From positions 1-53,919 of IMG/VR virus record IMGVR_UViG_3300029171_000010: 53,919 nt of DNA, one strand, 5' to 3'. The translations under genes were made by a program, and so were the position numbers. Shown piece by piece: positions 19,803-49,555 of this stretch. Position 1 is the stretch's first letter, and every line of letters starts with the position of its first letter. The DNA comes from a virus (lineage: Duplodnaviria > Caudoviricetes). The notes under the pieces are model-generated. The model saw only the letters and a program-made list of their open reading frames with translations. It was not told the DNA's origin and did not search any database.

Positions 19803-20118
19803 TAGCGATCACCGCCGGGAGAGCGACCGTAAAACACTCATCAGATCGCCCACCTGTGTAGATGCGACCTCCTGCATGGATTGTTACACGATAGCATGCG
19901 CGCCCGTATTCATTAGTAAATACCAGCACCCCGCCGCGTTCGGTAATGTCGGTTTGTGTGATTGTTCCGCCTGTGAGTTCAACCGTAACATTTGCTGGAT
20001 CGACAGTATACCCGCGTGGGTATTGCCAAATATAGACAAACGTTACCGAGTCGGCACGAACCGGCACAAGGAGCGCCAGCCAGAGCAGAAAAGCAATAAA
20101 CCATTTATGACGTACCAT
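19795..20118 (-). CDS. Small secreted protein
   Basis: Signal peptide WFIAFLLWLALLVPVRA; C-terminal FTVALPAVI. Confidence 0.6.
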   Translation of the reverse strand: MVRHKWFIAFLLWLALLVPVRADSVTFVYIWQYPRGYTVDPANVTVELTGGTITQTDITERGGVLVFTNEYGRACYRVTIHAGGRIYTGGRSDECFTVALPAVIANG

Positions 20119-22564
20119 CGTTGCTCCAGAAACGAGGCCGATAGGTAATATCGGTGCGTAAATTGGCGTTGTCTGCAAAAAAAGAAACGTAGTTTGTCCC
20201 CGGCTGTAATTGCCACCTCGCGAGATTCGATCCCGCAATAATTGCGCTAAGAATATTGCCGCGAAACGAGCTTGTTACCCCTGCACTACCGGGTGCAAGA
20301 TTTACTATTGCCGATTCATTTGCCTGTAATACGAGATTGAAATACAATTCCGATTGTGTTGCGGTGTTAAGTAGTTGATAGATGCGAGTCGTGCCACTTG
20401 TCGGTGCCCGAAAGATAATTTTTGGCGCGACCGCTGCTCCGTTGGTAATTGTTAATGGAATAACCGAAGCAGATCGGGCGGTTCCAGTGAACGATCCTGC
20501 AATATATGCACCGCCATCTGGCGTGAAAGCTATCCCAAATACGCGCCCTGGTGGCGGAATGTCAATGTCACCCGGAACCCATGCAGCTCCCGTCCAGCGA
20601 GCAATCCCATCAGGAAATGGCAAAACGGTGCCACTACTAAAAAACTGGCCACCAGCCCAAATTTGTCCTGCTGGCGAGACAACTAGCGTGTCTACTGCGT
20701 CATTTGTACCCGATCCAATACCGAGCGCCATTCTGGTGAATCCAGAAAGATTGCTTTGTGCAACATTGGGTGCAGACCCGCTATTCACTGCTTCAAATTT
20801 GCCGCCGACGACAAAATTTTGCGACGGCAGTGCAGCAACCGTGTACATCCCTGCTAATGGAACACCAGAGATGATCCCCGGCACGCTTCCAAATGCGCCG
20901 TTTTTCCAAATACCAAGCCGTTGATTTGAGATTGTCGTACCACCTGCCGCTCCACCGTCGGTGGTAAAAACAAGCGTGTCGCCAACCATGGTGAGCGCAT
21001 AACACGTATTGTTGACGGTTCCTCCACCAAGTGAACCCCATGCGGTTGGAGTGAAGAGTGCAAGATAGTTGTTGATGCCAGCACTCGCAGGCCCCGCGAA
21101 TGTAAAATTCCCCGCAACAAACACCGTACCGCCATATGGATACAGATCGTAAACACCACGTATACCCGAAGACGCATCAACCGTTCCGTTTGCGCACGAT
21201 CCCCATGTATTATTTGAAAATTGAGTTAATCCTTGGAATCTGCCATCAACCGAAATGAAAAAACCGCCCGCGTACAGGGTGCCCGATGCGTCGTACTTCA
21301 CTACATTAACTACATTGGTAATACCGCTACTTGGGAACGTTCCAAAAGTGCCACCAGCATAGAAGCCAATATAAGCACTATTGGCGGTTCCTGCGATACT
21401 GCCAAAATTCCCGCCAAACACCAATGTTCCGGTTGGACTAATTGTGATTGATTGCACTCGCCGTGTTGTTGGGGCACCACTAGTAATGGTTGTTCCGTTT
21501 TGTCCTAATGTTCCCCATCGTCCATACGAATCGCGATAGGCAAATTCGTTGGTACTGCCAAGATTGGTGAATGCTGCTAAACTTGTCCCGCGCTCCGTGA
21601 TCGTTTGCCAATACGGATCGGGCGCAATTAACCGTACTGCCGCTTGTTCGGCAAACCCGTTCCATCCGCCATAACTCAGGCCGCTATCGTAGACTGCATC
21701 AATCTGTACACTGCCACCCGCGCCGGTGTAGAGGATACGAAACGGTGATGGGTTGGGGGTGAGATCGGGTTTAATGACGTTGATCACTTGCTGTCGTAAC
21801 GCATGCATATGTTGCCACGTCGTGCCATTAACTAACCCCGTGAGCACAAAGCTGCGCACATTGGCGCGAGTGCGTTGGTAGAAGCCGCCGTCTAAGTAGC
21901 CGTAGTCCTGTGTAACCACGTTCACATCCGGCATGCCCACGCCTTGCGCATCAAGGATGGTGAACCCCATGTCTGACAGATTGTAGACACTGCCACCCGT
22001 GCGCACGGACGCGCTACGAAGGCTGGTGCTGGCATGGGGTTGCCCATCCCAGGTGTAGCCCACACCTTGATCGCCGTCGATATAGGTGGTAACACTGCCT
22101 GCCTCATACTGCACCGCGTCGATATAAAATGCAGTAGTGACGGCGCTGTTGTTTTTGCGAATAGCCAAACGTCGCGTTGCGCCGGTTGATTCGGTGTAGC
22201 TGCCGTGGTAGCGATGCCACGATCCGCCGCCTGTGCCAACCAGTGTGCCGGTTTGGTAGCCATTGCCACTGCTGTCCCCGATGCCCGCGATGAAGGTACT
22301 GCCCACGGGAAACGAGCCGTAGAAGCTCCAGCTATACGCGGTGCCGTTGCCAGCGGCGAAGGTTGGTGCAAGCACCCCTGCTGTGCCGTTACTGGTTGGC
22401 GCAACGCTACCGCTCCACGCACCGAACGCCTGTACACCGCTGGTGGTGCCAAGCGTGCCCGCGAACAACGTCCCCCAGCCAGTGGTACCGGTTTCAAATG
22501 AGGGATTGGTGCTAAGGTTGCGGCGGTCGCCAACGGGCACGATCACACTGTAAAATCCTGGCAT
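20105..22564 (-). CDS. Evolved distal tail protein (Dit) with N-terminal CBM-like domain and inserted beta-propeller
   Basis: Follows TMP; NPSFETGTTGW; APDPYW and LQPGTN Dit motifs; repeated xGGxF blades. Confidence 0.8.
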   Translation of the reverse strand: MPGFYSVIVPVGDRRNLSTNPSFETGTTGWGTLFAGTLGTTSGVQAFGAWSGSVAPTSNGTAGVLAPTFAAGNGTAYSWSFYGSFPVGSTFIAGIGDSSGNGYQTGTLVGTGGGSWHRYHGSYTESTGATRRLAIRKNNSAVTTAFYIDAVQYEAGSVTTYIDGDQGVGYTWDGQPHASTSLRSASVRTGGSVYNLSDMGFTILDAQGVGMPDVNVVTQDYGYLDGGFYQRTRANVRSFVLTGLVNGTTWQHMHALRQQVINVIKPDLTPNPSPFRILYTGAGGSVQIDAVYDSGLSYGGWNGFAEQAAVRLIAPDPYWQTITERGTSLAAFTNLGSTNEFAYRDSYGRWGTLGQNGTTITSGAPTTRRVQSITISPTGTLVFGGNFGSIAGTANSAYIGFYAGGTFGTFPSSGITNVVNVVKYDASGTLYAGGFFISVDGRFQGLTQFSNNTWGSCANGTVDASSGIRGVYDLYPYGGTVFVAGNFTFAGPASAGINNYLALFTPTAWGSLGGGTVNNTCYALTMVGDTLVFTTDGGAAGGTTISNQRLGIWKNGAFGSVPGIISGVPLAGMYTVAALPSQNFVVGGKFEAVNSGSAPNVAQSNLSGFTRMALGIGSGTNDAVDTLVVSPAGQIWAGGQFFSSGTVLPFPDGIARWTGAAWVPGDIDIPPPGRVFGIAFTPDGGAYIAGSFTGTARSASVIPLTITNGAAVAPKIIFRAPTSGTTRIYQLLNTATQSELYFNLVLQANESAIVNLAPGSAGVTSSFRGNILSAIIAGSNLARWQLQPGTNYVSFFADNANLRTDITYRPRFWSNDGTS

Positions 22565-22567
22565 ACG

Positions 22568-24876: not shown

Positions 24877-25154
24877 ACGGCTGCGGCTTGTTTCATGTAC
24901 TCACCCATTTCCTGCCACTGCCACAACTCAATTTCTTCCGCTTCTTCGGGCGTGATTTTGAGCGCGGCAGCGATAACCGGAATGAGATCATCCCATTCGT
25001 TTGTTTTCTGGGCTTTGTCAAGCATCTTTAAAACTTTGAGCTTAACGCGCCCTTGGGTGATGGATGCCTGTTTGGTTCGACCGTCGTCAAACTCAATCGT
25101 GAAGGTGTACGTTTTGCGGCCTTCAATGACTGCTGTTCCCGCTTGTTCGCTCAT
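24846..25154 (-). CDS. Tail assembly chaperone (gpG-like)
   Basis: Between tail tube and TMP; slippery site near 3' end. Confidence 0.8.
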   Translation of the reverse strand: MSEQAGTAVIEGRKTYTFTIEFDDGRTKQASITQGRVKLKVLKMLDKAQKTNEWDDLIPVIAAALKITPEEAEEIELWQWQEMGEYMKQAAAVPNESAPTTE

Positions 25155-26236
25155 TAGTTAATCATCTCCTGTTGCCCGCGTCGTACCACCAAAACGGTGC
25201 CACGCCCCGCTGCGGGCACGCTTTCGTTATATTTACTAAACCAATTGGCGGTTACAATACTGTTACCTTCCTGATCGTCTAGCGCGTCAAACTTGGTGTA
25301 CTTGATGGGCAAGTCGATCTGAAGGAGGTTCTGCGTAAAGCCGGTGCCGAGTGGAATGGTGCCACCCACCCAGCTCATGCGGGCAAGCATTGCCTGTTGA
25401 TCGCGCCAGGCTTGTTTTTGTCCAGCGGTGCCGCCTGCGGATTGCGATCCGGTCGCTTGGTGCTCAAACGTGAATTGGCCGTCGATCTCGTAGCCAGTAA
25501 ACACGGCAGTGTGGAAGTAGATCGATCCGCTGTCGATACTGAACTTCGGCTCGAACATCTCTTTGATGTTAACTTCAAAACCAAGAATATTGCCCGATGG
25601 GACGCGGGTTGCACCATACGTTGCACCGCTGACTGCCGGATCAAGATAGATTGATCCCCGCCCCGCCACGATGGTTTCGACCGGCGTAACAATGGTGCCG
25701 ATATTACTGAACGATCCACTAGCATTGGTACGTTCGACACTACGGAATATCCACTGGCTTTCGACTTTGATCGCTTCCCCGCCTGCACCGCTGAGCTTAA
25801 TCTCATTCACCAGGCCATACGAGCCGACTTCCGCTTCACCGCCTAATCCTTGCGCGGGTTCGCCTGCCTCAACCGTGAATGACTGTTGTGGCCAGACAGT
25901 AGACGCTGGCAAGGGAAAATAAAACGATACTGCCGATCCTGACGCGCCGTGGGCGCTGCCGCCCGCGCTGCCAAAGCCAGCGGCAGCAAAGATAACAGGT
26001 AACTGCTCAAAGGTAGCTTCGGTTTCACCGAGGGTAATCGCGCCCATCAGTTTGGCAATGTAGCTACGGTCAGTACCACCGAAAACACCGACTAACTCTT
26101 CAACATTCGTTACTTCACGTCGATCGTCGAACATCTTCGCCATGCCGCGCCAGATAAAACGCGGGGCAACTTGTGTGCCGGGGGTAGCTTCGAGGCGGAG
26201 TCGCACACTACGCAACTCCTTACGGCCTTGGGACAT
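25154..26236 (-). CDS. Major tail tube protein
   Basis: Size, position, AAGGAG RBS. Confidence 0.78.
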   Translation of the reverse strand: MSQGRKELRSVRLRLEATPGTQVAPRFIWRGMAKMFDDRREVTNVEELVGVFGGTDRSYIAKLMGAITLGETEATFEQLPVIFAAAGFGSAGGSAHGASGSAVSFYFPLPASTVWPQQSFTVEAGEPAQGLGGEAEVGSYGLVNEIKLSGAGGEAIKVESQWIFRSVERTNASGSFSNIGTIVTPVETIVAGRGSIYLDPAVSGATYGATRVPSGNILGFEVNIKEMFEPKFSIDSGSIYFHTAVFTGYEIDGQFTFEHQATGSQSAGGTAGQKQAWRDQQAMLARMSWVGGTIPLGTGFTQNLLQIDLPIKYTKFDALDDQEGNSIVTANWFSKYNESVPAAGRGTVLVVRRGQQEMIN

Positions 26237-26383: not shown

Positions 26384-26857
26384 CTACCAGAGTTCGCGAA
26401 TGGGTAGCGTAATCCGAAACCCACTATACGGCGTCGCACCCACCGCCAGATCGGTCACAATCCCGCTATCGCTTGGCTTGCGTTCGCCCCATTCCACGGT
26501 AACTTGATTTTGTGTCGCGGTTGGGTTCGCAAGCGCCGTGGGGTAGCCGTTTTGATCAAGGCTAAACCATTTGTCGATAAACGCATCAAGGAGTGTTACT
26601 GCCAGCGTGGATCGGCCTGGCATAGTGTTCTGCCCAAGCGCCTCGACAAATACGAGGATCGTGTACGTACGATCCGTGCGTTTCTTGCTGCCAAAGTGTT
26701 CGCGACTCCAATCGCCCGCTTCTGGCCATGTGAGCGCCATGGGGAGGCGCACACTATCGGCGGTCTGCGGGTATTTGCTGAACTCTGGGGCATACCTTAG
26801 TCCAGAAATTGAACGGTTTACATTCTGAATTAAGTCAATCGTTGTGCTGAGTGTCAT
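26384..26857 (-). CDS. Probable tail terminator / neck protein
   Basis: Size and position before tail tube. Confidence 0.55.
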   Translation of the reverse strand: MTLSTTIDLIQNVNRSISGLRYAPEFSKYPQTADSVRLPMALTWPEAGDWSREHFGSKKRTDRTYTILVFVEALGQNTMPGRSTLAVTLLDAFIDKWFSLDQNGYPTALANPTATQNQVTVEWGERKPSDSGIVTDLAVGATPYSGFRITLPIRELW

Positions 26858-28196
26858 TTAGTTTCCTCCACCACCAGAGCCGTCCGTTTGTCATCACGTC
26901 GGGCAGGTGTCGTTGTACGGCGGCCTGTACCCCTGGTGCATAATAGTCATCGCCGCATACAATGCCGCCATCCACCAGACGCGGCAAGAACGTTATGAGT
27001 TGATCGCTGACGCTCTGTTCATCGTGGGCGGCATCAAGGTGGATAAACGCGAGCGGATCGGTGTTGCGTTCTGCCCAGACCCGCCAGTCGCAGCGCTTTG
27101 GTTCGATATAGAGCAGTCCGAACGATTCGATATTGCGCAAGAACTGCCGAAACACGTCACGCTGCTGCGCAGCCTCAATGGTAGGATGATCAGGCGATTC
27201 GTCGCTGTTGCCTTGCCACGTATCCACCGCGTACAACGTGCGTTCACCAAGGCCATGTGCAATGGCAATCGTTGACACACCCTCCCAGCTTCCAATCTCA
27301 ACACATGCGCCCGTTGGCGGCGCATAGCTGGCAATCTTGGCAAGGATGGTACTGTGTGCGGCGTTCGTCCATCCTTCGTGAAATGTCGGTGCATAGTCGC
27401 TATAGAAATGCCGCACCCATGTCATCGGCTGCTCATAGACGGCATGCGGAAGATCGGTTGCCCAATCAATCGCAAAGTTCTGCCATGCGCGCCCGTATAC
27501 ATCCGATCCGTTCGCAATGCGTTCGGCAATCGTTGCCTCATCGCGGTGTTCAGGGTGATTGAGTTCCTGGTGCAGAAATGATTCAATCTTGGTTTTGACA
27601 TACTCTGGGCCACCAAAGTACGAAAAGTGCCAGCCCGCGTTATGGGCATGCATGATACGCGGAAACCCGCCGCGTTCCTGCCCCGCATAGCGCACCCCAT
27701 CCGCCCCAAGTGCCTGTACATTGGCGTACTGCGTGGCTCGTGTACCAAACCACTGGGCATCGCGGGCAGTGTGGTTGAATGTGTAGTAATGCAAGCGTTG
27801 CACTGCTACGACGATAGCATCGGATGGTAACTGATAGAGTGCTTGCACGAACGCCCGGCGCGGGATTTCGTCGCAATCACTAATCAGAATCATGTCGTCG
27901 TGACTGAGGTGCAGGCTGGCTAACGCATCGGCGATGGCATTGCGCTGCGCAATTTCACGCCGCCATGTCCAGAGCAACCCATCGCCATCAGGAAGATCGG
28001 CATTCCAGATTACCAACTTATGCGCATACGGCTGGAAGCGATCAAAGTTGGCGCGCAAGTGGCTATCCTTCGGCGCGCCTGCATGCGTGCGATTGCCTTC
28101 TACGATAACAAACAGATCGACAATTGGATCAAGATCGGCCATGCGAAGTGCCAGTAGATCGCTTTCTTGGAAGTAGGTTACACAATCAATGATCAC
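26835..28196 (-). CDS. GT17-like glycosyltransferase fused to class I SAM methyltransferase
   Basis: MIIDC..E.DLL.LR, REIAQRN, SDCDEIP, GWHFSYFGG; C-terminal EIGSWEG, IHLDAAH, GGIVCGDDY. Confidence 0.9.
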   Translation of the reverse strand: MIIDCVTYFQESDLLALRMADLDPIVDLFVIVEGNRTHAGAPKDSHLRANFDRFQPYAHKLVIWNADLPDGDGLLWTWRREIAQRNAIADALASLHLSHDDMILISDCDEIPRRAFVQALYQLPSDAIVVAVQRLHYYTFNHTARDAQWFGTRATQYANVQALGADGVRYAGQERGGFPRIMHAHNAGWHFSYFGGPEYVKTKIESFLHQELNHPEHRDEATIAERIANGSDVYGRAWQNFAIDWATDLPHAVYEQPMTWVRHFYSDYAPTFHEGWTNAAHSTILAKIASYAPPTGACVEIGSWEGVSTIAIAHGLGERTLYAVDTWQGNSDESPDHPTIEAAQQRDVFRQFLRNIESFGLLYIEPKRCDWRVWAERNTDPLAFIHLDAAHDEQSVSDQLITFLPRLVDGGIVCGDDYYAPGVQAAVQRHLPDVMTNGRLWWWRKLNDTQHND

Positions 28197-28467
28197 CTGC
28201 TACCTCCAGCGTATAGCTCTGACTTGCACTGTCGCCACTAAAATCGTAATCAGTACATGCAGCACCACTAGAAACCGCATGCGAATATCCGTCTGGCCAG
28301 TAATCTAAACGCACCCCAACCGGCATCGGCTTTTTGCAAAAAATGCAGCACGGATCGTATGCTCTCCATCCGCCTGTGTGTTTGCTGGCGTACTTCAACC
28401 AACGGCCATTATAACGATAGATTTGTTCAGCTAGCGGATCATCAGGGAGTTGATCGCTTTTTTTCAT
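28186..28467 (-). CDS. Hypothetical protein
   Basis: Overlaps neighbours; CIFC. Confidence 0.55.
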   Translation of the reverse strand: MKKSDQLPDDPLAEQIYRYNGRWLKYASKHTGGWRAYDPCCIFCKKPMPVGVRLDYWPDGYSHAVSSGAACTDYDFSGDSASQSYTLEVAGDH

Positions 28468-29660
28468 CCTGGCACCTCGATCACCGCCATGCCATTACAC
28501 GGTCTGACAAATGTTACCACCCAGTCGCGTTCAGCGCAATAGCGCTCCGTCGCCACCCGTACACCGGGGAAGGTTTCGGTATCGTGAATGCAGATCGTAC
28601 CACCTGGCTTTACCAGATGCCCCCAGATTGAGAGTTCAGCGGCGACATGATCTTCGGTATGGATCGTGTCAATCAAGAGCAGGTCGCACGGTAGCGCTTT
28701 CTTTAACACCTTAGTGGTTTGCATATCCGTACTACTGGCCTGTACGAACATCCAAAGCGGATGCCCCGCCGCAACCTGTGCCGATTGCGGATCAATATCC
28801 ACACTCCACACCCGCCCGCCATGACGCTCTACACCTGCGAGGAGTGCCATGGTAGACACACCGGATCGGGTGCCAAGTTCGATAACGTTGCCCGCCGCCT
28901 TGGCAAACAATAGCGGCAAGTGATGCTGAATGTCGCTTTGTGTAGCACATTGCTGCATATAGCGGCGGTAGGTTTCCGTTTCGGGTTGCTTTGCGACGAC
29001 ACGCGCCACACTGCGAATAAACGTTTCGCGATTCTGCTCAAATGATGCGCCGTGATTACGCAGCGCCCCTGCGGTTTGCCCGCCTTTATGCTGCACTGGC
29101 CACGCCGTCTGTACCAGTTTAATCCCTGACTGCAACGCACGCAGACAAAGGTCGTTATCTTCCCAATAGGGATGAGGGTAGTTAACGCTGTCCCATGGGC
29201 CGTAAGGTTGAATGAGTTGATTGTTGCCTTGGATGCCTAGTTGTTCCCACGTTGCCCGCGTCGCCGCAAGGCACCAACCCTCCAAGTACGGCCAATGATC
29301 GCCAAACAGGAATTGCGCGGCAAGGGCAGGGCCATACAGCGCCCCATCCCGCACGTCATGTGCGACGGATTGTAGCCACTTCGGATCGCCTGCAATGTCG
29401 CTGTTCATAAAGATAACAATTTCACCCGTAGCCACGGCATAGCCTTGGTTATTGGCGGCAGCAAATCCGGCGTTGACATCGTTACGCAGATAGATACCGC
29501 TGCGCTCTTCAGTGAACGCTTTGAGCGCTGTAGCGTTCGTGTCGTCACTAGCGTTGTCAATCGTGACAATTTGGATGTCCTGCGGAATAGCGGCAGCGTA
29601 ATCACGAAGTAAAGTATCGGCACCGTTTTTCCATGGGGTAATGATACTAATGGTTGTCAT
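28464..29660 (-). CDS. GT2 glycosyltransferase fused to class I SAM methyltransferase
   Basis: IDNASDD, GFAAANNQG, FMNSD, WEDNDLC; ELGTRSG, LIDTIH, GGTICIHD. Confidence 0.9.
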   Translation of the reverse strand: MTTISIITPWKNGADTLLRDYAAAIPQDIQIVTIDNASDDTNATALKAFTEERSGIYLRNDVNAGFAAANNQGYAVATGEIVIFMNSDIAGDPKWLQSVAHDVRDGALYGPALAAQFLFGDHWPYLEGWCLAATRATWEQLGIQGNNQLIQPYGPWDSVNYPHPYWEDNDLCLRALQSGIKLVQTAWPVQHKGGQTAGALRNHGASFEQNRETFIRSVARVVAKQPETETYRRYMQQCATQSDIQHHLPLLFAKAAGNVIELGTRSGVSTMALLAGVERHGGRVWSVDIDPQSAQVAAGHPLWMFVQASSTDMQTTKVLKKALPCDLLLIDTIHTEDHVAAELSIWGHLVKPGGTICIHDTETFPGVRVATERYCAERDWVVTFVRPCNGMAVIEVPG

Positions 29661-29881
29661 GCTTGCGCCTCCGTTCTCCGCCGTAATTCGTTTTCGAGCG
29701 CGTTTTGTTCGTCAACCCAACGAATGCACAACTCAGTAATAATGTCGTCCGGTAATCCATGTTCAATTGCAAGATTGCGATATTGTTTACACGCGAGCAC
29801 ACGAAACAACATGCCAGGCATAATAGAGGTAAGATCGTTTGTGATCATGTCAGTGTATTGTTGTTTTTGTTCGGCGTTCAC
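29657..29881 (-). CDS. Hypothetical protein
   Basis: GTGA/ATGA coupling. Confidence 0.55.
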   Translation of the reverse strand: MNAEQKQQYTDMITNDLTSIMPGMLFRVLACKQYRNLAIEHGLPDDIITELCIRWVDEQNALENELRRRTEAQA

Positions 29882-31095
29882 TTCGTCACCTCCAGCACGC
29901 TACGCGGTTCTACAATGCGCAGCACGCCGCGCTGGTGCTCTCGTTCAAGTTTGTCGGTAATCGCCGCAAGCGTTGGCTTCCAGTGCGCTTCTTTGACGGC
30001 TTCGATCATGTAGGCGCTGGCACCGGCGAGCGCTTTGGCGCGGAGTGATTCGCGCTCACCCGCTACCCGCAAACGTTTCTCCATCGTATCGAAGGCAAAC
30101 GCAATGGCATCAGGTTGCGGGAGAAACACATAGCTCATCTGTTTATCGTAGTAGTGGAATGCGTCGGCTTTGTCAATCGCGCATCCGGCAAACAGCAGTT
30201 CAGCGCTAGCCGTCCAATCGCCCACAATCACCGGCGTACCGCATGCTTGCGCTTCCAGTGTGGGAATACCAAACCCTTCGCCAATCGAAACGGTGTTCAC
30301 CACATCCATGGCACTATAGAACGTGCGCATATATTCGATAGGCAATCCGCGATCATAGGCATCTTGATCGATGAAATGGACATACGGAGTAATGCCGAGC
30401 TGTGCGAGTTGGCCGGGGAGATTGATTGCACCCTCGCGGCCTTGCTCGCCCGCATGAGTGTGCAGGTACAGGCGCGCATGCGGGTTTACTCGAAGATAGC
30501 GCGCAAACGCTTCGATATTCTGTGGCCACGCTTTACGGCTGGGATCGCTGCCACGATTGACGGCCACCATGCCAATCGCGAATGTCTCTGGCGCAATGCC
30601 GAGCTTTTCGCGCGCATCGGGTACATGGTAGTAGTCATTAGGATTGATCGTGTGTGGCGTGTAGCCAGGGCTGAACCCGACATTGCGTAACTGCTCCCAG
30701 CCAAAGCGCGCATAGGCAATCTGATGATAGCTATGTTGACGAAGCATGGACACAATTGGCTCAGGGATCGGATCGTGATCCACGGGGATCATGGGCACCC
30801 AGCGCACAGGGATGCGCCACGATTGCGGCTGATACACCCATAAATCTTTCAGGGTGACGACAATATCGGGGTTGAATTGTTGCACGGCTGGCTTGATCGC
30901 GTCGTTCCCAAAGCCGTCCATGCCGCCGGGGAACACGGTAAAGCCGTTCCATTGTTGACTGGCACCATGCAGCCCGAACGCCGCCACGTAGGCCACGTCA
31001 TGTCCCAGATCGCGCAAGATCGGGCCGATCATCGCCGCTTGCACTGCATATCCAGAGGTCGCCCATGGAGCATCGGAAACTAAAAGGATTCGCAT
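29878..31095 (-). CDS. GT4 (GT-B) glycosyltransferase
   Basis: SGYAVQ, RK, GEGFGIPTLEAQACGTPVI. Confidence 0.92.
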   Translation of the reverse strand: MRILLVSDAPWATSGYAVQAAMIGPILRDLGHDVAYVAAFGLHGASQQWNGFTVFPGGMDGFGNDAIKPAVQQFNPDIVVTLKDLWVYQPQSWRIPVRWVPMIPVDHDPIPEPIVSMLRQHSYHQIAYARFGWEQLRNVGFSPGYTPHTINPNDYYHVPDAREKLGIAPETFAIGMVAVNRGSDPSRKAWPQNIEAFARYLRVNPHARLYLHTHAGEQGREGAINLPGQLAQLGITPYVHFIDQDAYDRGLPIEYMRTFYSAMDVVNTVSIGEGFGIPTLEAQACGTPVIVGDWTASAELLFAGCAIDKADAFHYYDKQMSYVFLPQPDAIAFAFDTMEKRLRVAGERESLRAKALAGASAYMIEAVKEAHWKPTLAAITDKLEREHQRGVLRIVEPRSVLEVTK

Positions 31096-34200: not shown

Positions 34201-34249
34201 CGTTGTTACTCTTTCGTTGGAGCGGGGACAGCACCCGCTCCAATTCGCA

Positions 34250-36417: not shown

Positions 36418-38966
36418 GCGTACTCCAATTCTAAGAGGTCGAGTTCTATCATCAGCCGCTCACGCTCCATCTTCATGGCATCAGCCATCTCTATGGAGTC
36501 TGTCTCTGGGCTGTCTATATAAGCGGGCGGAAACTCCGCCGCGTAGATAGCTTTAAGGGCGCTCACGGGCAGTAAGCGTGGTTCTGCGGGGGTTGGGGTA
36601 AGGCTGGCGGCCATCAGTGGCCAGCGGGTTACTTCGTTCGTGTCACCGCGCCGGGTGCGCTTCACCAGATGCGGGGCGCTATCGCTACTCAGTTTCAAAG
36701 CGCCTTGTTTTACCATTTCGTTGATGGCGCTATAGTATTTGTGCGCTTTGTCGAGTTGCCCCTCTAACCAGATGCCCACATCATCACGCATAGCCTTTGT
36801 CCAGGTGCCAATAATCGGCACATCGGCGGTAGCTTCATCCTGTGCGTGGTGGTAGAGCATCGGGCGCTGCGTCCAAGCATCAAGCCAGAAATCAGTAGCT
36901 TTCGTGAAGTAATCACGCATTTGTGAGAGATCGGGGTTATCCGCATCACCAAAGCGCACGGCGTAGGCTCCGATCTTGCCTTCATCCAGCATCTTGACGG
37001 CATCGCCGATCACCACCCGTGGGGTGTCGTCATCATCTGCTTCGTAGCCGTCTTCGGCTCCGTCAAGCTCACTGATCTCCCACTCTACCCGCGCCCATTC
37101 GCTTTTGTCGGAAAGCTGTACGTCGCCGCTGTCAATCGTGTAGTTAATTTGGTAGGTTTCGCCGTCAATGTCCAGTACGGCGTACTCTGCGTAGACGGTA
37201 ATATCGCAATCTTCTTGCGCGGCTTTTTCGTCGCCGATCACCTCACAAATGGCATCACACACCAGATCGCATTGCGTTTGCAGATCAAGCGCCTTGATTT
37301 CAATTGTCAGGGGTTCATTGGCATCTATCGGCTTATCGTCATTCATGGGCGCGCCTGCATCCCTGAGCGCTCCTAATGTGCCGACTGCAAAACTAACGGC
37401 GCGCTTGAGGTGTTGCTCATCACTGGCACTATGGCGACGGCTGTATTTGATTTCATCCATGTCGGCATCCTTTGTGGCGCGTGGGGTTACGGTTTGACCT
37501 TTATTGAGTCGGGCACGCTCTTGCTGGCTTTCTTTGATGAGCGCTCGTGATTCGGCAAGCAGCGCAGCACGCAGTGTCGGATTGCCACGCGCTGCTTGCA
37601 GTTCAGTGTCAATCTGGCGTTGCCGCGCTTGGCGCTGTGCGTGGTTTTGTTCGGCAATGGCGATAGATTGTTGCCGTCGTTCGGTACTGCTTAACTTTTT
37701 TTCAATCGCCGCTTTACGCTTTTCAAGTTTGGCAACTTGTGGGCTGGCGGGTGGCTTTGTTGGTTTTGTTGGCGTTCGGGCGCTTGGTTTGTCAGGCGCG
37801 CTTGGCGGCGCACCCTTTTCCAGTCCCGCCTCTGGGCTGCGCTTGCCCGTCTTAGGATCGACCTTCCAGAGTCCGCCAATACCGCCGGATGGCTTCTTGC
37901 CTGCCCCACCTCCACCACCAGAACCACGCCCGCCGCCCATATTGGCAAACATCGCCCGATCTTGGGCGGATTGCTTAATTTCGTCCATCTTGGTTTCCCT
38001 TGTGGTAATCTCAATCCCGTTGCGCAATTCGCGGGTACGGCGGGTCGTGCGTGGCTTGTTCGTTTCGGCTTCGCGTTCGGCGTCCTTGATCATCTTGTCA
38101 ATGGCGCGCTGACGGGCTTGCGCTTCGCGTTCGAGGCGGGCACTCGCGTCTTGCAGGGCTGCCCGAAAGCCGCCCACGTTGCCCAACTCCAGCGCTGCCA
38201 GGGCGCGCCGTCCTTGATCAGTGGTATCGCCGTTGGCATCCAGTAAACCCAGATCGCGCATGCGCTCGTTCTCGGCTCCACCATTATCGCGACCTTGCTG
38301 TAAGGCGCTTACGTCATCCGGTTCCAGCCCAACACGGCGAGCGGTTTCGCTTGCGCGCTTGGCACGCTCCTCTAGCTTGGCTTGCTGCTTTTCGTCGGGT
38401 GTCGGTTTGTCTTTACCACTCCCACCCCCACCGCCGCCCTTGGGTTTTTCTTCCTCTGGCTTGGCTTCGGCGGGTGTCATCGCGTCCTTGGCACGGGCGG
38501 TAAGTTCCGCTACTCTGCCTGCATCGCCACCACTGGCCGCGTTGTAGGCTTGTCGTCCTGCGGTGTTCAGTACAATCGTGCCGTCTTTGAGCTTATCGGC
38601 CAGCCCTGCGGCAACCAATGCCTCACCTTGCGCCGCGTCGGGCTGCTGCCCCATTGCTAAGGTGTCCATGGCGGCGGCGTTCTCACCTAAGAGCTTGGCG
38701 CGGTTGGCTTGCGCTTCCTGACGGGCGACAGCTTCCTTTTCTTCCGCTGTTGGCTTGGCGCTCTTTGCGCGGCCTTTGCCTTTTTGTTTACCTTTGGCTT
38801 TGTACTTGCCCCAACGTGCCAGCGATGCGAGGCGGGCTACTTCAGAGCGCGTACGCTTGCCAGGGGTGCCGGTATTGGCGGGCGCACTGCCACCGGCAGT
38901 TTGCTTGGCGCGCTCCGCTTCGGCCATGTCGCCATCAGATTTTAGGAAGTGCATATGCATTGGCAA
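36414..38966 (-). CDS. Prohead protease with ~650-aa N-terminal extension
   Basis: C-terminal GAYAVRFG, LYHH, DDVGIWLEG, SSDS, ASLTPTPAEPR; start uncertain. Confidence 0.85.
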   Translation of the reverse strand: MPMHMHFLKSDGDMAEAERAKQTAGGSAPANTGTPGKRTRSEVARLASLARWGKYKAKGKQKGKGRAKSAKPTAEEKEAVARQEAQANRAKLLGENAAAMDTLAMGQQPDAAQGEALVAAGLADKLKDGTIVLNTAGRQAYNAASGGDAGRVAELTARAKDAMTPAEAKPEEEKPKGGGGGGSGKDKPTPDEKQQAKLEERAKRASETARRVGLEPDDVSALQQGRDNGGAENERMRDLGLLDANGDTTDQGRRALAALELGNVGGFRAALQDASARLEREAQARQRAIDKMIKDAEREAETNKPRTTRRTRELRNGIEITTRETKMDEIKQSAQDRAMFANMGGGRGSGGGGGAGKKPSGGIGGLWKVDPKTGKRSPEAGLEKGAPPSAPDKPSARTPTKPTKPPASPQVAKLEKRKAAIEKKLSSTERRQQSIAIAEQNHAQRQARQRQIDTELQAARGNPTLRAALLAESRALIKESQQERARLNKGQTVTPRATKDADMDEIKYSRRHSASDEQHLKRAVSFAVGTLGALRDAGAPMNDDKPIDANEPLTIEIKALDLQTQCDLVCDAICEVIGDEKAAQEDCDITVYAEYAVLDIDGETYQINYTIDSGDVQLSDKSEWARVEWEISELDGAEDGYEADDDDTPRVVIGDAVKMLDEGKIGAYAVRFGDADNPDLSQMRDYFTKATDFWLDAWTQRPMLYHHAQDEATADVPIIGTWTKAMRDDVGIWLEGQLDKAHKYYSAINEMVKQGALKLSSDSAPHLVKRTRRGDTNEVTRWPLMAASLTPTPAEPRLLPVSALKAIYAAEFPPAYIDSPETDSIEMADAMKMERERLMIELDLLELEYA

Positions 38967-43524: not shown

Positions 43525-43912
43525 GATCTACCTTTTCACGATACTTTTCTGGTTTATGTGCTTTCAGTAACGTAACAAGAAGCGTGTCACTGTATCGCTT
43601 GACGTATGTGATAATTCCGTCTTTGTCTCGCTCTTTTCGCCCAATGATTGGCTCTTTCGTTCCTTCGACTGCCCGCCGCCATGCTTCGGCTTCAAGTGTT
43701 TCGATTGCTTGTTCAATTGCCTGATCCCACTTAGCGGCAAACTCAGAATCTTGCTCTCGCCAACCATATGGCGTGGTACGATCAATGGCGGCTGCTCGTG
43801 CTGCCATGGATATGTTGGCGGTTTGCGATAACACTTCCAAAAATCGCGCACGCGCATGTTCGGGTGTTGTTTTTGTTGATGCTCTTGGCATGTTAACTAC
43901 CTTTGGTTTCAT
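43460..43912 (-). CDS. terS: Terminase small subunit
   Basis: ANISMAARAAAIDRTTPY HTH, LEAEAWRRA, YSDTLL..LLKAHKPEKY; start may be 43891. Confidence 0.88.
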   Translation of the reverse strand: MKPKVVNMPRASTKTTPEHARARFLEVLSQTANISMAARAAAIDRTTPYGWREQDSEFAAKWDQAIEQAIETLEAEAWRRAVEGTKEPIIGRKERDKDGIITYVKRYSDTLLVTLLKAHKPEKYREKVDHEHRGSIAVEFVNNWREQAND

Positions 43913-44226
43913 CCCCCCGGCATTTGCCGAACCATAAACTGGCCAACAAATGCCGCATTCAATGCGCCGGTTCCGTTATAGCCGTATGTCCATACCCCAT
44001 ACGTTCCTACAGGAATGGGGTTCAGATCGAAGTAGTAACTACCTGCCACTGCTCGCGTTAGTGAACCACTGGCATAATCGTAGCGCACAGTGCCAGGCAC
44101 CACCGCGCCGAACTGTGCAGGCGGCACGATGTGCAGAAAAATGCTGGTAGGATCGGTCATTGCGCCTGCGACATTGACGAACGTGCCAATCAGGCGGATT
44201 GGATCGCCCGCGTCATAACTATTCAT
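43909..44226 (-). CDS. Small Ig-like putative virion protein
   Basis: DPT, GSYY, G.WTY pattern; GGAGG RBS. Confidence 0.55.
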   Translation of the reverse strand: MNSYDAGDPIRLIGTFVNVAGAMTDPTSIFLHIVPPAQFGAVVPGTVRYDYASGSLTRAVAGSYYFDLNPIPVGTYGVWTYGYNGTGALNAAFVGQFMVRQMPGG

Positions 44227-44452
44227 CGCTACTCCCTCCACCGCTTAGGGCGCTGTCCCCGATCCCGCCACTGGATAACCCACTCTCGCCACTGCCACCA
44301 CCAGACAAGCTGCTGTCACCGATACCGCCCGCACTAAGGAGATAATCGCTGATGCCACCCTGCGACAAAGCCAGCGTGTAGCCGCCCGCCCGCCCGCGAG
44401 TGTCCACGGTCGGCGGGGCAGCAATACCATAGCCTTGTAACAGTAAGAGCAT
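44219..44452 (-). CDS. Small Gly/Ser-repeat protein
   Basis: Five LSxGG[I/S]x[D/E] units. Confidence 0.55.
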   Translation of the reverse strand: MLLLLQGYGIAAPPTVDTRGRAGGYTLALSQGGISDYLLSAGGIGDSSLSGGGSGESGLSSGGIGDSALSGGGSSDE

Positions 44453-44453
44453 C

Positions 44454-44654
44454 CTAGTTCCCTAGTCGATCAGCGTACAACACGGGTACACCCTGATCGG
44501 GATACGTGCAAATAAACAATGTCTGCGTAGATCGGCAGGCAGGACACGACGCAGCCGTGTCAAGCGTAGAATAGGTCGGCTGCGTCGCATCAACGATGGC
44601 TCGGTAACGATACCCGCATTGCCCGCACGCAATCACAATCTCATTTTCTAACAT
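44454..44654 (-). CDS. Small Zn-ribbon protein
   Basis: CGQC...CPAC. Confidence 0.55.
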   Translation of the reverse strand: MLENEIVIACGQCGYRYRAIVDATQPTYSTLDTAASCPACRSTQTLFICTYPDQGVPVLYADRLGN

Positions 44655-45199
44655 GATTGCCCCCGCTTAATCAGTGTCGCCTGCACGTCGTTAATCACAT
44701 TGATGTAATGGCGCATCATCATTTGGCGGTATTCCTCATTGCGCGTCGTAAGTTGCGCCTCAATTGCATAGCCAAAGGTAGTATCAAAGTCGCACGTTAC
44801 CGCATAGTGATCGAGTTGGTTGGCATCGCGCCATGCTTTGTTCAGATATAAGAAACTCACATCGCTAATCGCCCGGCGGTGCGTTGGGTCTTGCCATGCG
44901 CGGGTACTGGCGTGCCACGGCGCAATAATCGTGATCTGCCCGCCGGGTGCGAGGATGCGATACACTTCATCAAAGAACGCAAAGAATGCTTCTTTGTTTC
45001 GCCCGTCGTGCGTAATAAACTGCATGGGAATATGCTCGATATAATGCGAGCAAAACGCCACTTCCACGCTTCCGGTTTCAATCGGCCATGGATAGACATT
45101 GAGATCATGCACGATGTCCACGCCGGGCACGTCTGCCCAGTCGATCCCGGTATAGCCGTCCTGCTTCCTTTGCCCACAGGCAATGTCGAGTTTCACCAC
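44648..45199 (-). CDS. Class I SAM methyltransferase
   Basis: LDIACG, HYIEH, EVYRILAPGG, DPTH. Confidence 0.88.
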   Translation of the reverse strand: MVKLDIACGQRKQDGYTGIDWADVPGVDIVHDLNVYPWPIETGSVEVAFCSHYIEHIPMQFITHDGRNKEAFFAFFDEVYRILAPGGQITIIAPWHASTRAWQDPTHRRAISDVSFLYLNKAWRDANQLDHYAVTCDFDTTFGYAIEAQLTTRNEEYRQMMMRHYINVINDVQATLIKRGQSC

Positions 45200-45925: not shown

Positions 45926-48601
45926 TTAGATAATCCCGTAGATATTACTCGCGTTACTGGCGATCAATCGCACATCCGGCATGAGTGCTGCCCATGCCGA
46001 ACCGGTATACGCCATCTCGCTTTGTGCAATCGATCCGGGCATTGCCGTGGTAAACGTTGCACTATACAGCCCGTGGAATGGATAGTATTTGACGTAGCTA
46101 CTGGCGGTACTGCTCGCCGCGAACGCAAACCCGCTACGTTCGACGCTGTTGCCCATACGGGCCGCCATTATGCCATGAGATGCCGTAGCAATACTGTCGT
46201 TTGATGAGCGAAACCACAGCAAGCCCCAATAGCTATTGTTACTCAAGGTAAGGGAGGTATTGAACAAACTGCTATGAAGCGTCAGCCAGCGCATGCCGTT
46301 ATACAAGCTGCTGATAGAGTTGTTCGCCGCGCCGGTTCCCCATGACGTGCTACCACTTACCACCAGCGTAAGTTGGGTGCGGTTGGTAAGCTGGTAAATA
46401 CCGAACGAAATGGTACTACTGTGTGACGCGGTGGATGCCGTGCTGTTGCTATGGCTGAATGACATGTTCAGCAGCACCGTGCCAACCGTCATGTTTCCAG
46501 GAAAAATATCATCGGGCGGCGTAAGTGGGAATACCCATGCGCGGTTGAATGACATGCTGGCATGCGTTGCTGCGCCCGTGCCGGTATTCCATGCCCATGG
46601 GATATTGGCATACGCGCTAATCGTCGGGGCCACGGCTTGCGCTGCTCCGCTGACGGTAATGGTTGCCCCACCGGCGGCGGTGGATTGCGAGAGGGTAATG
46701 TTATTGCCGCCAGCAAAGATTACTTGGTTTGATACCGTGCCCGTGTTGCCGGATGTGTTGCCGCCCGTAGACACCCCTGCACTAAATGCCGCCCCGCCGC
46801 CGCCGCCACTAATGGTGATGGTCATCGATCCGCCATTGGTTGATCCACTGAGCGTGATTGCGTTGCCGCCAGCCAGTACCAGTTGATTGCCTGCCAGTCC
46901 CGTGTTACCGCTCGTATTGCCAATGTTTGACAAGCCCGCGCTATACGCACCTGCACCTGGTGTGGGAACTGACAACCACACCGTATGCACGCCGCCTGCG
47001 CCCGTCGATCCCGATACCGTGATATTATTCGTGCCCGCAATCACCCATGTGCCGTACTGTGTGGCGGTATTACCTGCGGTGTTGCCCGTGTTCGATCCGG
47101 CAGCCATTGCCGCAATCCCCGCGTGCTGGTGGCCTTCCAGCGCAAAGCGCCCCGCGTTCGCGCCAATGGCGTTGGCATTCGATACTTGGCTAATCGTCGT
47201 AGCCGTGCTCCAACTATTGATCAGACTGAGTGTCCCCGACGCGCCATTGATCGATTGACTGCCGATCATGCCATCACTGGCTACAATCACATAGCGCACT
47301 TGTGCGCCGCTGGCGACACCGGATGTCCCGCTGGTATTGCCAAGGTTGGACGCGCCAATGCTTTGTGATTCGGCGGATTGCGCCGATGCGCTAATACTAA
47401 TCGTTTGCCCGTTCGTGGTGACGGTAAGGTTGACCCCGGTATACAGCACCGTCCCGCTGGTGTAGGTGTTGCCAGCGGCAGCGGGAACCACAATGTTTTG
47501 CGTCTGGGCGGATTGATTGAACGCACTCACGGTGATGGACATCGATCCAGCATTCGTCGATCCGCTTAGAGTGATGTTATTGCCACCGATCAACGCTAGC
47601 CGTCCGGTGACAAATGCGGTATCACCAGCGGTATTGCCATTGGTGGACATCCCGCCACTGAATTGTGCGGGGACGGTTGGCACCGTATAGGATGCGGTGA
47701 CGGTCTGGCCGTTCAGGCCAAACGATACGCCGTTGCTATTCGAGAAGATCACCGTACCGCTCGTCGCTGTTGCCCCGCCTGCTGCGATACCACCAACAAA
47801 CGTCTGCGCTGATTGATTAAACGCGCTAATCGTGACGGCGTTCCCGGCCTGACTCAGTGTGATATTATTGCCGCCCGCCAGCGTCAGCGTGCCGCTACTG
47901 ATCTGCGCCATGGCACCAGCGGTATTCCCAGAGAGGGTCACATTGTGCAGGTTTTGCGTTTGTACGGTTTGGTTCGCGCCGCTTACACTTACGGTAATGC
48001 TGCCGCCGTTAGTTGAGCCGCTAAGGGTAATGTTATTGCCACCAGCCAGTACCATGCGCGCCGTAACCAACCCCGTATCGCCAGCGGTGTTGCCGTTGGT
48101 GGATATGCCGCCCGTAAACTGAGCGGGCACCGTGGGCACGGTGTAACTGCCCGTCATCGTCTGCCCGTTCATGCCGAACGCTAGGCCATTGCTATTACTG
48201 AAAATGACGGTACCACTGGTGGCGGTGGCTGCTCCTGCGCCGATACCACTGATACCCGTTTGTGCGCCACCTGCGTTGGCACCACTGATGGTAATCGTTG
48301 CGCCTGCGGCATTCGTCGATTGACTGACGGTAATATTATTGCCACCAGCAAACACCACGCGGTTACTCACGGTACCCGTATCACCGGCGGTGTTGCCGAG
48401 ATTGGATGCGCCCGCGCTGAACGCACCACCAGCGCCGCCGCTAATCCAAATGGTATTCACACCATTGGCGGCGGTCGATTGGCTAATGGTGATATTGTTG
48501 GTGCCTGCAATGACATTCGTAGCAAACGACGTGCCGGTATTCCCAGCCGTGTTGCCGGTATTTGAGACACCGATTGGGGTTGGCGGATAGTAGATCGGCA
48601 T
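45926..48601 (-). CDS. 891-aa G/S/T/N-rich repetitive fibre-like protein
   Basis: Repeated GNTAG[N/D]TG and AGGNNITLS units; distinct aromatic C-terminal head. Confidence 0.75.
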   Translation of the reverse strand: MPIYYPPTPIGVSNTGNTAGNTGTSFATNVIAGTNNITISQSTAANGVNTIWISGGAGGAFSAGASNLGNTAGDTGTVSNRVVFAGGNNITVSQSTNAAGATITISGANAGGAQTGISGIGAGAATATSGTVIFSNSNGLAFGMNGQTMTGSYTVPTVPAQFTGGISTNGNTAGDTGLVTARMVLAGGNNITLSGSTNGGSITVSVSGANQTVQTQNLHNVTLSGNTAGAMAQISSGTLTLAGGNNITLSQAGNAVTISAFNQSAQTFVGGIAAGGATATSGTVIFSNSNGVSFGLNGQTVTASYTVPTVPAQFSGGMSTNGNTAGDTAFVTGRLALIGGNNITLSGSTNAGSMSITVSAFNQSAQTQNIVVPAAAGNTYTSGTVLYTGVNLTVTTNGQTISISASAQSAESQSIGASNLGNTSGTSGVASGAQVRYVIVASDGMIGSQSINGASGTLSLINSWSTATTISQVSNANAIGANAGRFALEGHQHAGIAAMAAGSNTGNTAGNTATQYGTWVIAGTNNITVSGSTGAGGVHTVWLSVPTPGAGAYSAGLSNIGNTSGNTGLAGNQLVLAGGNAITLSGSTNGGSMTITISGGGGGAAFSAGVSTGGNTSGNTGTVSNQVIFAGGNNITLSQSTAAGGATITVSGAAQAVAPTISAYANIPWAWNTGTGAATHASMSFNRAWVFPLTPPDDIFPGNMTVGTVLLNMSFSHSNSTASTASHSSTISFGIYQLTNRTQLTLVVSGSTSWGTGAANNSISSLYNGMRWLTLHSSLFNTSLTLSNNSYWGLLWFRSSNDSIATASHGIMAARMGNSVERSGFAFAASSTASSYVKYYPFHGLYSATFTTAMPGSIAQSEMAYTGSAWAALMPDVRLIASNASNIYGII

Positions 48602-49555
48602 TTACCACTCACTCAGTTGGGCAGTCCCGCCCGCAATATCCCAAATCCCGTTAATCGATCCGGTGTAGCGCATCGGGAGTTCGTAATACCCGTTCGGCGC
48701 AATCTTGACGTTATAAGTTGCTGTACCGGCCAGTGCAGGCGCAAGGCGTAGATACAGATTGCCACCAGCGCCCACGGGATCGTTAAACACGCTTGCCCCT
48801 TGCCGGGCGGTGTTTGGAGCCAACAATACGATATGGCCAACGGTGCCCGCGATGCGACTATCTGTCACCGCACTAATCGGCGGCTGGTGGAATGTACCAC
48901 CCCACACGCTACCGGCAACAGAAAGCGTACCGCCAGCAAGTGCGCTTGCAATGTGGACGCTGCCCGCCAATGGCTGCATCGTGCCAAGTGCAGATACGGT
49001 GCCTGCAATGGTGCCAATATCAGCGGTGCCGGGCAAGCGTGAAGCCAGATGCACGCTGCCTGCGAGTGGTTGCGTGGTGCCAAGAATTGACACCGTGCCG
49101 CTTGCTAAATGCACCGATCCGGCTAATGGCTGAAAGGTGCCAAGCGCCTGCACTGTTCCAGCGATAGTACCAATGTCTACCGTACCCGGAAGCCGTGAAG
49201 CGAGATGTACCGATCCGGCAAGTGGCTGATATGTTCCGAGTTGCTGTCCTGTGCCATGCAACTGCACCGTGCCACTAATCGTATTCGCGAGATGGACGCT
49301 GCCCGCCAACGGCTGTACCGTACCCGCTACGGATACATCGTTATTGGCACCCAGATTCACCAGTAACCCATCGGCAAGCGTGGCCGGAAGATCAATCGCT
49401 TCCCCGTTGGCCGTGCGCACGGCAGCAGCCACCCGCTGTACCTGCTGTGCGGTGACAACCCCACCATTGAGTGTGGTTACTTCCTCAGTGCTTACCACCG
49501 TCAGATCGGGCGGGGTTGCTGGGGTGCCTGATTGGTAAATGACGTTATCGGCCAT
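48602..49555 (-). CDS. Repeat-containing fibre-like protein
   Basis: GTxQPLAGSVH[L/I]A five times. Confidence 0.7.
   Translation of the reverse strand: MADNVIYQSGTPATPPDLTVVSTEEVTTLNGGVVTAQQVQRVAAAVRTANGEAIDLPATLADGLLVNLGANNDVSVAGTVQPLAGSVHLANTISGTVQLHGTGQQLGTYQPLAGSVHLASRLPGTVDIGTIAGTVQALGTFQPLAGSVHLASGTVSILGTTQPLAGSVHLASRLPGTADIGTIAGTVSALGTMQPLAGSVHIASALAGGTLSVAGSVWGGTFHQPPISAVTDSRIAGTVGHIVLLAPNTARQGASVFNDPVGAGGNLYLRLAPALAGTATYNVKIAPNGYYELPMRYTGSINGIWDIAGGTAQLSEW

Follow-up and report, generated by a model that had tools for sequence, protein, structure and literature searches.

Introduction

Glycosylation of virions by phage-encoded glycosyltransferases is described as established for the phages Che8, Corndog, and Myrna (PMC12363180, PMC10877033), and a 2026 report describes host-dependent methylation together with N-acetylhexosamine (HexNAc) on a mycobacteriophage tail protein (PMC13445384). 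We analyzed the IMG/VR record IMGVR_UViG_3300029171_000010 (Duplodnaviria; Caudoviricetes), a linear viral metagenomic record of 53,919 nucleotides rated 88% complete, which was studied over its whole length (hereafter, the window). The subject is a short protein motif, Gly followed by Ser or Thr (G-[ST]), that is in excess in seven late proteins of this phage, together with a three-gene cassette of predicted glycosyltransferases encoded among them. A first-pass annotation, made from the sequence alone, had proposed that the dipeptide is enriched in outer virion proteins of unrelated folds and is a candidate O-glycosylation sequon.

To our knowledge, glycosylated phage particles have been shown only for a few mycobacteriophages, in which the sugar shields virions from antibodies. 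Freeman et al. are said to have located, in 2023, roughly one glycan per subunit, at the C-terminal end of the capsid and tube proteins. The Bacteroidetes O-glycosylation sequon is D-(S/T)-(A/I/L/V/M/T). In the autotransporters AIDA-I and TibA, a repeat beta-helix is heptosylated by Aah and TibC, and in the chlorovirus PBCV-1 the capsid is glycosylated by virus-encoded transferases, independently of the host and in atypical acceptor contexts. Our literature searches, like the first-pass annotation, turned up no described G-[ST] phage sequon, and they found no acceptor rule predicting glycosylated phages or residues.

G-[ST] is overrepresented in seven late proteins

Expected counts of G-[ST] were obtained from composition-preserving shuffles for 65 open reading frames (ORFs) of the window. 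An excess at p<0.01 was found in seven of them, all late genes on the minus strand. These seven are listed below with observed and expected counts, followed by the gene for the major capsid protein (MCP).

48602-49555, minus strand: p317, a fibre-like protein; 27 G-[ST] against 7.5 expected, z 8.3; residues 78-236 form 22 short units, each starting with G-[TS]
20105-22564, minus strand: distal tail protein (Dit) with added domains; 45 against 24.4, z 5.2
34575-35021, minus strand: 148-aa jelly-roll protein directly after the MCP; 12 against 4.6, z 4.1
33826-34323, minus strand: 165-aa ORF; 9 against 3.3, z 3.7, all nine within a 124-aa version that starts at an internal Met
25154-26236, minus strand: major tail tube protein, 360 aa, with a tandem tube fold of the P74-26/T5 type; 15 against 7.0, z 3.5
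43909-44241, minus strand: p110, a small ORF upstream of TerS; 6 against 1.9, z 3.5
31291-31890, minus strand: head-tail adaptor, Phage_connect_1; 7 against 2.7, z 3.0 (6 sites if the start is Met7)
35023-36417, minus strand: MCP, an outer virion protein

Pooled, the seven proteins contain 121 G-[ST] against 51.5 expected, and Gly-Thr ranks first in them among all 400 dipeptides (80 against 28.1, z 11). The excess is directional, with 121 G-[ST] compared with 54 [ST]G (binomial p=4e-7); the reverse dipeptide is not enriched. The statistics hold when p317 is left out, the directional comparison then being 94 to 49 (p=2e-4). When residues were shuffled only within windows of 10, 20, or 40 residues, z stayed at 2.7-8.5, and Gly/Ser/Thr-rich loops therefore do not explain the excess. 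Whole and local shuffles together rule out whole-protein or local composition as its cause. The sites are encoded by 26 different codon pairs, so the excess is not a DNA word, and a cause at the DNA level was rejected on that ground.

The residue that follows the motif is also nonrandom. The tripeptide G-[ST]-hydrophobic occurs 90 times in the seven proteins against 21.4 expected (4.2-fold, Z 15.7). With p317 left out, a hydrophobic residue or Ala follows the motif Ser/Thr at 66 of 94 sites, compared with 42% by composition and 88 of 225 (39%) after other Ser/Thr. Three control groups from the same genome, namely early genes (31 ORFs), internal proteins and enzymes (10), and other virion-region proteins (10), gave observed/expected ratios of 0.87-1.08 for the tripeptide; these 51 ORFs show neither an excess nor a depletion of the motif. 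The G-[ST] excess is confirmed as real and sharpens to G-[ST]-hydrophobic.

These per-protein observed/expected statistics were among the checks that the first-pass annotation had proposed, and they uphold its claim of enrichment. Its hand counts were exact on recount, including the statement that 10 of 16 Thr in the 148-aa protein follow Gly. The low counts that it gave for enzymes, two to three each, hold roughly, with 2 in the GT4 glycosyltransferase, 3 in TerL, and 4 in the integrase.

The excess and the conservation of its sites are restricted to one clade

Distribution of the motif was surveyed in 80 viral loci encoding homologues of the tail tube protein (1174 ORFs). Only 19 of the 1174 ORFs reached z of at least 3, and four of those lie in a single close relative, locus L001; the background rate outside L001 was 15 of 1154 ORFs. 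When z was pooled by locus, L001 reached 6.0 and the next highest locus 3.1. The baseline of the tube family itself is mild (77 homologues, mean z 1.34).

A larger clade was found by a metagenome scan and by profile scans with the decoration (148-aa) and adaptor proteins. A single-sequence query of viral contigs with the decoration protein gave nothing useful, whereas the profile query worked; a GT4 profile search of viral contigs returned L001 only, once again. Members of the larger clade have MCPs 38-66% identical and tubes 42-57% identical to those of the window, and a GC content of 54-71%. The same kinds of protein are motif-rich again across the clade: the tube, Dit, the adaptor, the decoration protein, small ORFs that follow the decoration gene, and p317- and p110-like proteins.

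Within the clade, conservation of the motif Ser/Thr is about double that of other Ser/Thr. Comparison of the tube with four clade members showed Ser/Thr kept at 50 of 60 positions after Gly and at 75 of 160 elsewhere. The corresponding figures were 28 of 45 and 47 of 117 for Dit compared with L093, and 914 of 1008 and 839 of 1512 for the decoration family. Against six outgroups the difference in the tube is gone (37 of 90 after Gly, 111 of 240 elsewhere), and the motif Gly residues show the same clade-only conservation. At 46-49% identity, 11-12 of the 15 tube sites are kept in clade members, compared with 3 of 15 in locus L002, a relative outside the clade; S and T swap often at conserved tube sites.

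Dit has 45 sites here, 45 in L001 (36 shared), and 41 in L093 (23 shared), compared with 16-33 in outgroups, of which 3-6 are shared. In L001 the syntenic ORF (123 aa) shares 34% identity with the 124-aa version of the 165-aa ORF and has 10 sites to its 9, with 3 in common. Judged from these alignments of Dit and the 124-aa ORF, the number of sites is held while individual sites turn over.

Motif-rich proteins co-occur with a glycosyltransferase cassette

A three-gene cassette lies between the adaptor and tail tube genes of the window.

29878-31095, minus strand: GT4-type glycosyltransferase (Pfam Glyco_trans_1_4 and Glycos_transf_1; PHROG glycosyltransferase)
28464-29660, minus strand: GT2 glycosyltransferase fused to an S-adenosylmethionine (SAM) O-methyltransferase (Methyltransf_24/CmcI-like)
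26835-28196, minus strand: GT17-like glycosyltransferase fused to a Methyltransf_24/TylF-like sugar O-methyltransferase

All three (GT4, GT2 plus Methyltransf_24, and GT17 plus Methyltransf_24) scored above the Pfam cut-offs. The methyltransferase domains belong with sugar O-methyltransferases (relatives of TylF, CmcI, and MycF), and the late region encodes three SAM methyltransferase domains. Distant relatives of the GT4 enzyme in the PDB include MshA and the chlorovirus protein B736L (E 2e-4 for B736L). No heptosyltransferase domain appeared in the domain searches. Homologues of the GT17-methyltransferase (39-46% identity) lie upstream of the tube gene in L090, L096, L137, L138, L140, L141, L144, and L145. 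This protein, the sole cassette member searched against GenBank phages, matched nine records, all cyanophages or uncultured phages and no actinobacteriophage.

Co-distribution was counted with rows more than 95% identical taken once. A GT4 homologue lies downstream of the adaptor gene in all eight clade adaptor loci and in none of six outgroup adaptor loci. A GT4 homologue also lies downstream of the decoration gene in all six loci with at least 5 kb of downstream sequence, three further loci being too short, and cassette homologues are present in every clade contig that reaches far enough. Tubes accompanied by a cassette homologue (n=5) have z of 2.8-4.0, compared with a mean of 1.54 for tubes without one (n=37, each with at least 6 kb upstream); a one-sided Mann-Whitney test, not corrected for phylogeny, gave p=0.0009. 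Another 40 tubes could not be classified and fall outside the two cassette classes.

Sequence divergence within the tube family allows a closer comparison. The tubes of L138 and L141, at 42-43% identity and with the cassette present, each have 13 sites against 6.4 expected, and cassette-bearing tubes at 42-47% identity as a group have 13-17 against 6.4-8.2. The tube of L002, at 42% identity and cassette-less, has 5 against 5.0; it keeps Gly at several of the motif positions but not Ser/Thr. L002 is the closest cassette-less relative, with adaptor, p157, and tube genes contiguous; its 17-kb record contains neither a GT2 nor a GT1_4 match. In hhalign, a 143-aa ORF that follows the L002 capsid gene scored a probability of 0.1 against the decoration family, to which it has no detectable relation. 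If homologues from phages lacking glycosyltransferases were equally enriched, this would speak against a role in glycosylation; such an outcome was mostly not found, as the L002 tube illustrates, although 4 of the 37 cassette-less tubes do reach z of at least 3. A general link of the motif to any glycosyltransferase gene was rejected, since the tube z is the same with and without GT2.

A different sugar-modifying cassette lies directly upstream of the tube gene in three distant relatives of the tail-tube family, L003 (5929-9846), L004, and L006 (2433-8717). It encodes an MptE/Maf-like protein, a Methyltransf_24 protein, and a GT2, with a B12-binding radical SAM protein in addition in L006. Glycosylation modules seem to recur next to the tube gene across the tube family.

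Properties and predicted structures of the motif-rich proteins

The AlphaFold2 (AF2) model of the tube protein has a pLDDT of 89.5 and matches 8ED0 by Foldseek with TMq 0.72 and E 1.7e-16; the tape measure gene follows the tube gene. The model identifies the protein as a tandem tail tube of the P74-26/T5 type, with two fused tube domains.

The 148-aa protein is likely a decoration or cement protein, and we treat it as a candidate for that role. Its AF2 model (pLDDT 90.4) is a jelly roll that matches XepA (Z 9.8), a chain of a phage 7-7-1 capsid entry (7.5), and a chain of the Bordetella-phage capsid entry 3J4U (7.0). Phage capsid accessory chains as a group match it at Z 6-7.5. All of these scores fall in a range rated as common, and a Foldseek search with the model gave no clear match. 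Its position after the MCP is kept in nine of nine loci. Among its homologues at 37-100% identity, 81 of 85 have z of at least 3.

In strings assigned by DSSP, the motif sites of the tube and decoration models fall in loops, at strand starts, in mid-strand, and in one helix. Sites within two residues of a strand end number 8 of 15 in the tube, where 57% of all residues are that close, and 4 of 12 in the decoration protein, where 52% are. A uniform turn-to-strand role was rejected because proximity to strand ends is no greater for sites than for residues in general, and the varied secondary-structure contexts therefore do not support a single structural role. The motif hydroxyl may be exposed; the sole indication is the hydrophobic character of the following residue, whose side chain in a strand would lie on the opposite face.

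The adaptors have 5-9 sites in the clade and 1-6 in outgroups. Those of two clade members, L131 (6152-6772) and L132 (10034-10651), carry an 11-13-residue Gly/Thr-rich insertion with more G-T pairs. Homologues of p110 are found directly upstream of the adaptor gene in L144, L145, and L146. In L144 and L145, p317-like and p110-like genes both lie between the decoration and adaptor genes and not upstream of TerS.

No Pfam or PHROG family matched p317, and 2957 proteins matched it at E of 0.001 or less. Homologues with the same repeats reach densities of 7-12 G-[ST] sites in 100 aa, and z values as high as 14, while those sharing only the terminal domains are without that density; both statements refer to the 150 best representatives, in which z was at least 3 in 28 of the first 40 and in 16 of the remaining 110. 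p317 is modular, with an N-terminal part of 90 aa, a shaft of G-[TS] repeats, and a C-terminal domain of 90 aa, each of which is found separately elsewhere (P0087-P0125). Shaft length varies, and p317 homologues range from 300 to 1081 aa. Tandem repeats at the DNA level were looked for in p317 and in the neighboring 891-aa protein (p891), and TRF returned 0 rows.

That 891-aa protein (45926-48601, minus strand) has long degenerate repeats (G-N-T-A-G-N/D-T and G-G-N-N-I-T-L/V-S), is 15% Gly and 27% Ser plus Thr, and matched no family; it is probably a beta-helical fibre. One clade member, L138, carries a 625-aa ORF (9051-10928) that separates the tube gene from the tape-measure gene; it contains 30 G-[ST], with 15.1 expected (z 4.6), and no counterpart of it occurs at that position in the window.

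A putative acceptor motif and alternative explanations

The analysis shows the motif excess, its direction, its restriction to a clade, the extra conservation found only there, and the complete co-distribution with the cassette. The reading that we find best, and hold tentatively, is that G-[ST]-hydrophobic is an O-glycosylation acceptor motif on a subset of virion proteins. In this view sugar would be attached to two components of the tail (the tube and, at the baseplate hub, Dit), to the adaptor in the neck, to the candidate capsid decoration protein (the jelly roll encoded after the MCP), to the products of two small ORFs, and to the repeat fibre p317. Transfer would be carried out by cytoplasmic enzymes that the phage itself encodes, namely GT4, the GT2-methyltransferase, and the GT17-methyltransferase. 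These putative transferases would act on protein, with the Ser/Thr after Gly as the modified residue, and the glycan built by the cassette would probably carry O-methylated sugars. Selection would hold the density of sites while individual sites turn over. Whether the motif is in addition a true linear sequon for a phage cytoplasmic protein O-glycosyltransferase, directing methylated glycans to ~120 sites over the seven proteins, is a stronger proposal to which we give slightly less credence. The sugar-acceptor interpretation of the first-pass annotation is in this way supported in part, through clade specificity, constraint on the sites, and co-distribution with the cassette, all of which come from a single clade.

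Several observations weigh against an acceptor motif. The MCP, the most abundant outer protein, has 6 G-[ST] against 5.8 expected, and clade MCPs range in z from -1.1 to 0.5, none with an excess. An excess is likewise absent from the 891-aa fibre-like protein (28 against 35.4), Tal (7 against 5.4), the 651-aa protein (14 against 13.2), and the lectin-like protein (6 against 5.4). The first-pass label of outer virion proteins was therefore too broad; the excess holds for the seven late proteins and not for these five. The adaptor sits in the neck and is exposed in part only. The related idea of unrelated folds converging on one dipeptide survives for the tandem tube fold, the jelly roll, the adaptor, and Dit; in p317 the excess is a defining feature of a repeat family. 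Recurring G-T-hydrophobic ... G-G-x-F stretches, which read by eye as propeller-like blades, supply part of the excess in Dit. These repeat-borne sites of p317 and Dit are therefore not independent events. In the decoration family, ~10 sites are near-invariant and mostly strictly Thr, which looks like fold-level constraint as much as a sequon.

Comparisons among phages add further points against it. The four cassette-less tubes with z of at least 3 reach a maximum of 4.1, and L015, from a record rated 76% complete, has no GT2 or GT1_4 match. GT2 matches occur in 20 of 50 relatives' records, and the tube z is ~1.5 with or without one (averaged by hand). L003, L004, and L006, with their Maf-like/GT2/methyltransferase cassette, have tube z of only 1.4-2.3. 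Next to stand-alone GT17 relatives (4 loci, 33-35% identity), one of 52 neighboring ORFs has z of at least 3. PDB relatives of the cassette enzymes are distant and generic, which leaves protein glycosyltransferase activity putative. The MCP of the window ends in ...MKVSA and the tube in ...QEMIN, neither with a terminal -GS. Since every phage with both the cassette and the motif-rich proteins belongs to one and the same clade, the two may have come together just once in its history, and the whole case is an inference from a single lineage.

A less likely explanation is that the motif is purely structural, an inherited turn/strand-start and repeat-rung element fixed in the ancestor of the clade, with no modification. 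The cassette would then serve elsewhere, on host envelope glycans, another phage product, or different sites. The mild excess across the whole tube family fits such an origin, as do the conserved Gly-Thr positions that outgroup tubes have of their own, the cassette-less tubes of high z, the near-invariant Thr of the decoration family, the recurring stretches of Dit, and the placement of p317 sites as first residues of short units in a large repeat family. It is harder to reconcile with the gain of the same directional dipeptide by seven differently folded proteins in one lineage, with the higher adaptor counts inside the clade than outside it, and with the L002 tube, in which Gly persists at several positions and Ser/Thr does not. 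Sites in varied secondary-structure contexts, with no nearness to strand ends, and their turnover at constant number also argue against it.

It is improbable that the motif is read by another trans-acting factor or carries another modification, the phage glycosyltransferases not being the readers. The factor could be a glycosyltransferase of the host or a kinase, or else the motif might be O-methylated directly, either by the methyltransferase domains or by the 183-aa methyltransferase encoded at 44648-45199. Constraint that is specific to the clade and shared by unrelated proteins argues for some trans factor without identifying which; the three SAM methyltransferase domains of the late region and the host-dependent methylation with HexNAc described for a mycobacteriophage tail protein (PMC13445384) are consistent with such a factor. 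The methyltransferase domains are, however, of the kind that methylates sugars, and no factor other than the glycosyltransferase cassette was observed to accompany the trait.

A statistical or compositional artefact, arising from Gly/Ser/Thr-rich low-complexity loops, internal repeats, or the post hoc choice of a dipeptide picked after inspection of the sequences, is very improbable and largely refuted: p317 and part of Dit are repetitive and the seven proteins are Gly-rich (9.5-15.5%), but the excess withstands local shuffling and comparison with the reverse dipeptide, whether or not p317 is included, Gly-Thr comes first among 400 dipeptides, the excess recurs in L001, in sister-clade tubes, in the Dit of L093, and in nearly all decoration homologues, and the background rate of high z outside L001 is low.

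Late gene order and other features of the window

The phage is a temperate siphophage. Features outside the motif-rich set and the cassette include the following.

11014-12123, plus strand: integrase
51186-52322, minus strand: endolysin, 378 aa (Amidase_2 and a weak glucosaminidase match)
44648-45199, late region: 183-aa methyltransferase

Late genes on the minus strand run in the order endolysin, ConA-like lectin protein, p317, 891-aa repeat protein, methyltransferase, p110, TerS, TerL, portal, 850-aa protein, MCP, 148-aa protein, 165-aa ORF, 651-aa protein, head-tail adaptor, GT4, GT2-O-methyltransferase, GT17-like-O-methyltransferase, p157, tail tube, tape measure, Dit, Sipho_Gp37-type Tal, and SGNH esterase. 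The 850-aa ORF (36414-38966, minus strand), between the portal region and the MCP gene, resembles a prohead protease in its C-terminal part only (Peptidase_S78, E 0.003, below the cut-off), and this protease-like region is kept in many relatives. AT skew is strong across 36-40 kb. The early region encodes, on the plus strand, a VapE-like primase/helicase-type protein (4326-5531) and an MT-A70-type methyltransferase (6526-7167).

A megablast of 20 kb against GenBank phages revealed no DNA-level relative, and the tail tube protein matched no GenBank phage record. Two scans of genome contigs found no prophage relative, and hence no host clue.

Significance

If the stronger proposal holds, no sequon for the glycosylation of phage virions would have been described before this one. 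If the motif is an acceptor, it would be a predictor, from sequence only, of modified virion proteins and residues. The glycan coat would be much denser than in known cases, and a three-residue tag with a three-gene enzyme set would become available for making glycoproteins in the bacterial cytoplasm. Virion glycosylation may be common in uncultured phages, because sugar-modifying cassettes often occupy the same position in the tube family, as the frequency of GT2 matches among relatives' records indicates. If the motif is structural instead, one directional dipeptide fixed in seven unrelated folds is still unusual.

Comparison with known systems

Tubes of Thermus phage P74-26 and of T5 (8ED0, 9INY, 5NGJ) share the fold of the tube described here, with TMq 0.72 to 8ED0 and 0.61 to T5, but differ in sequence (8-14% identity); we know of no glycosylation of either. 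The PBCV-1 system belongs to a eukaryotic virus and makes N-linked glycans, and the sequence similarity of the chlorovirus B736L to the GT4 enzyme is only generic.

Che8, Corndog, and Myrna are closer parallels. Here as in that system, a siphophage encodes its own glycosyltransferases, and capsid-associated and tail-tube proteins are the presumed targets; in Corndog the glycosyltransferase genes also lie beside structural genes. A terminal -GS is found in Che8 on its annotated MCP and its annotated major tail protein, and in Corndog on gp41 (presumed MCP); gp49 of Corndog (presumed tube) ends in -GDS. These ends hint that a Gly before the acceptor suits such enzymes. Unlike the C-terminal siting reported for that system, the candidate sites here are many and internal, at 6-45 per protein, and the MCP is without an excess. 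Virion proteins of Che8 and Corndog show no G-[ST] excess, with z at most 2.1.

The Bacteroidetes sequon resembles the motif in being three residues long, with a central Ser/Thr acceptor followed by a hydrophobic or small residue, and Gly here takes the place of Asp before the candidate acceptor. That system differs in having exported proteins as targets and in using a lipid-linked glycan with an oligosaccharyltransferase, whereas the enzymes encoded here look soluble and cytoplasmic. A cytoplasmic transferase is also used for AIDA-I and TibA, in which Ser/Thr is modified at a recurring position of short repeat rungs. Enzyme family, repeat length, and type of protein all differ from the p317 case, but by analogy their heptosylation could serve as a model for p317 with its 22 G-[TS] units.

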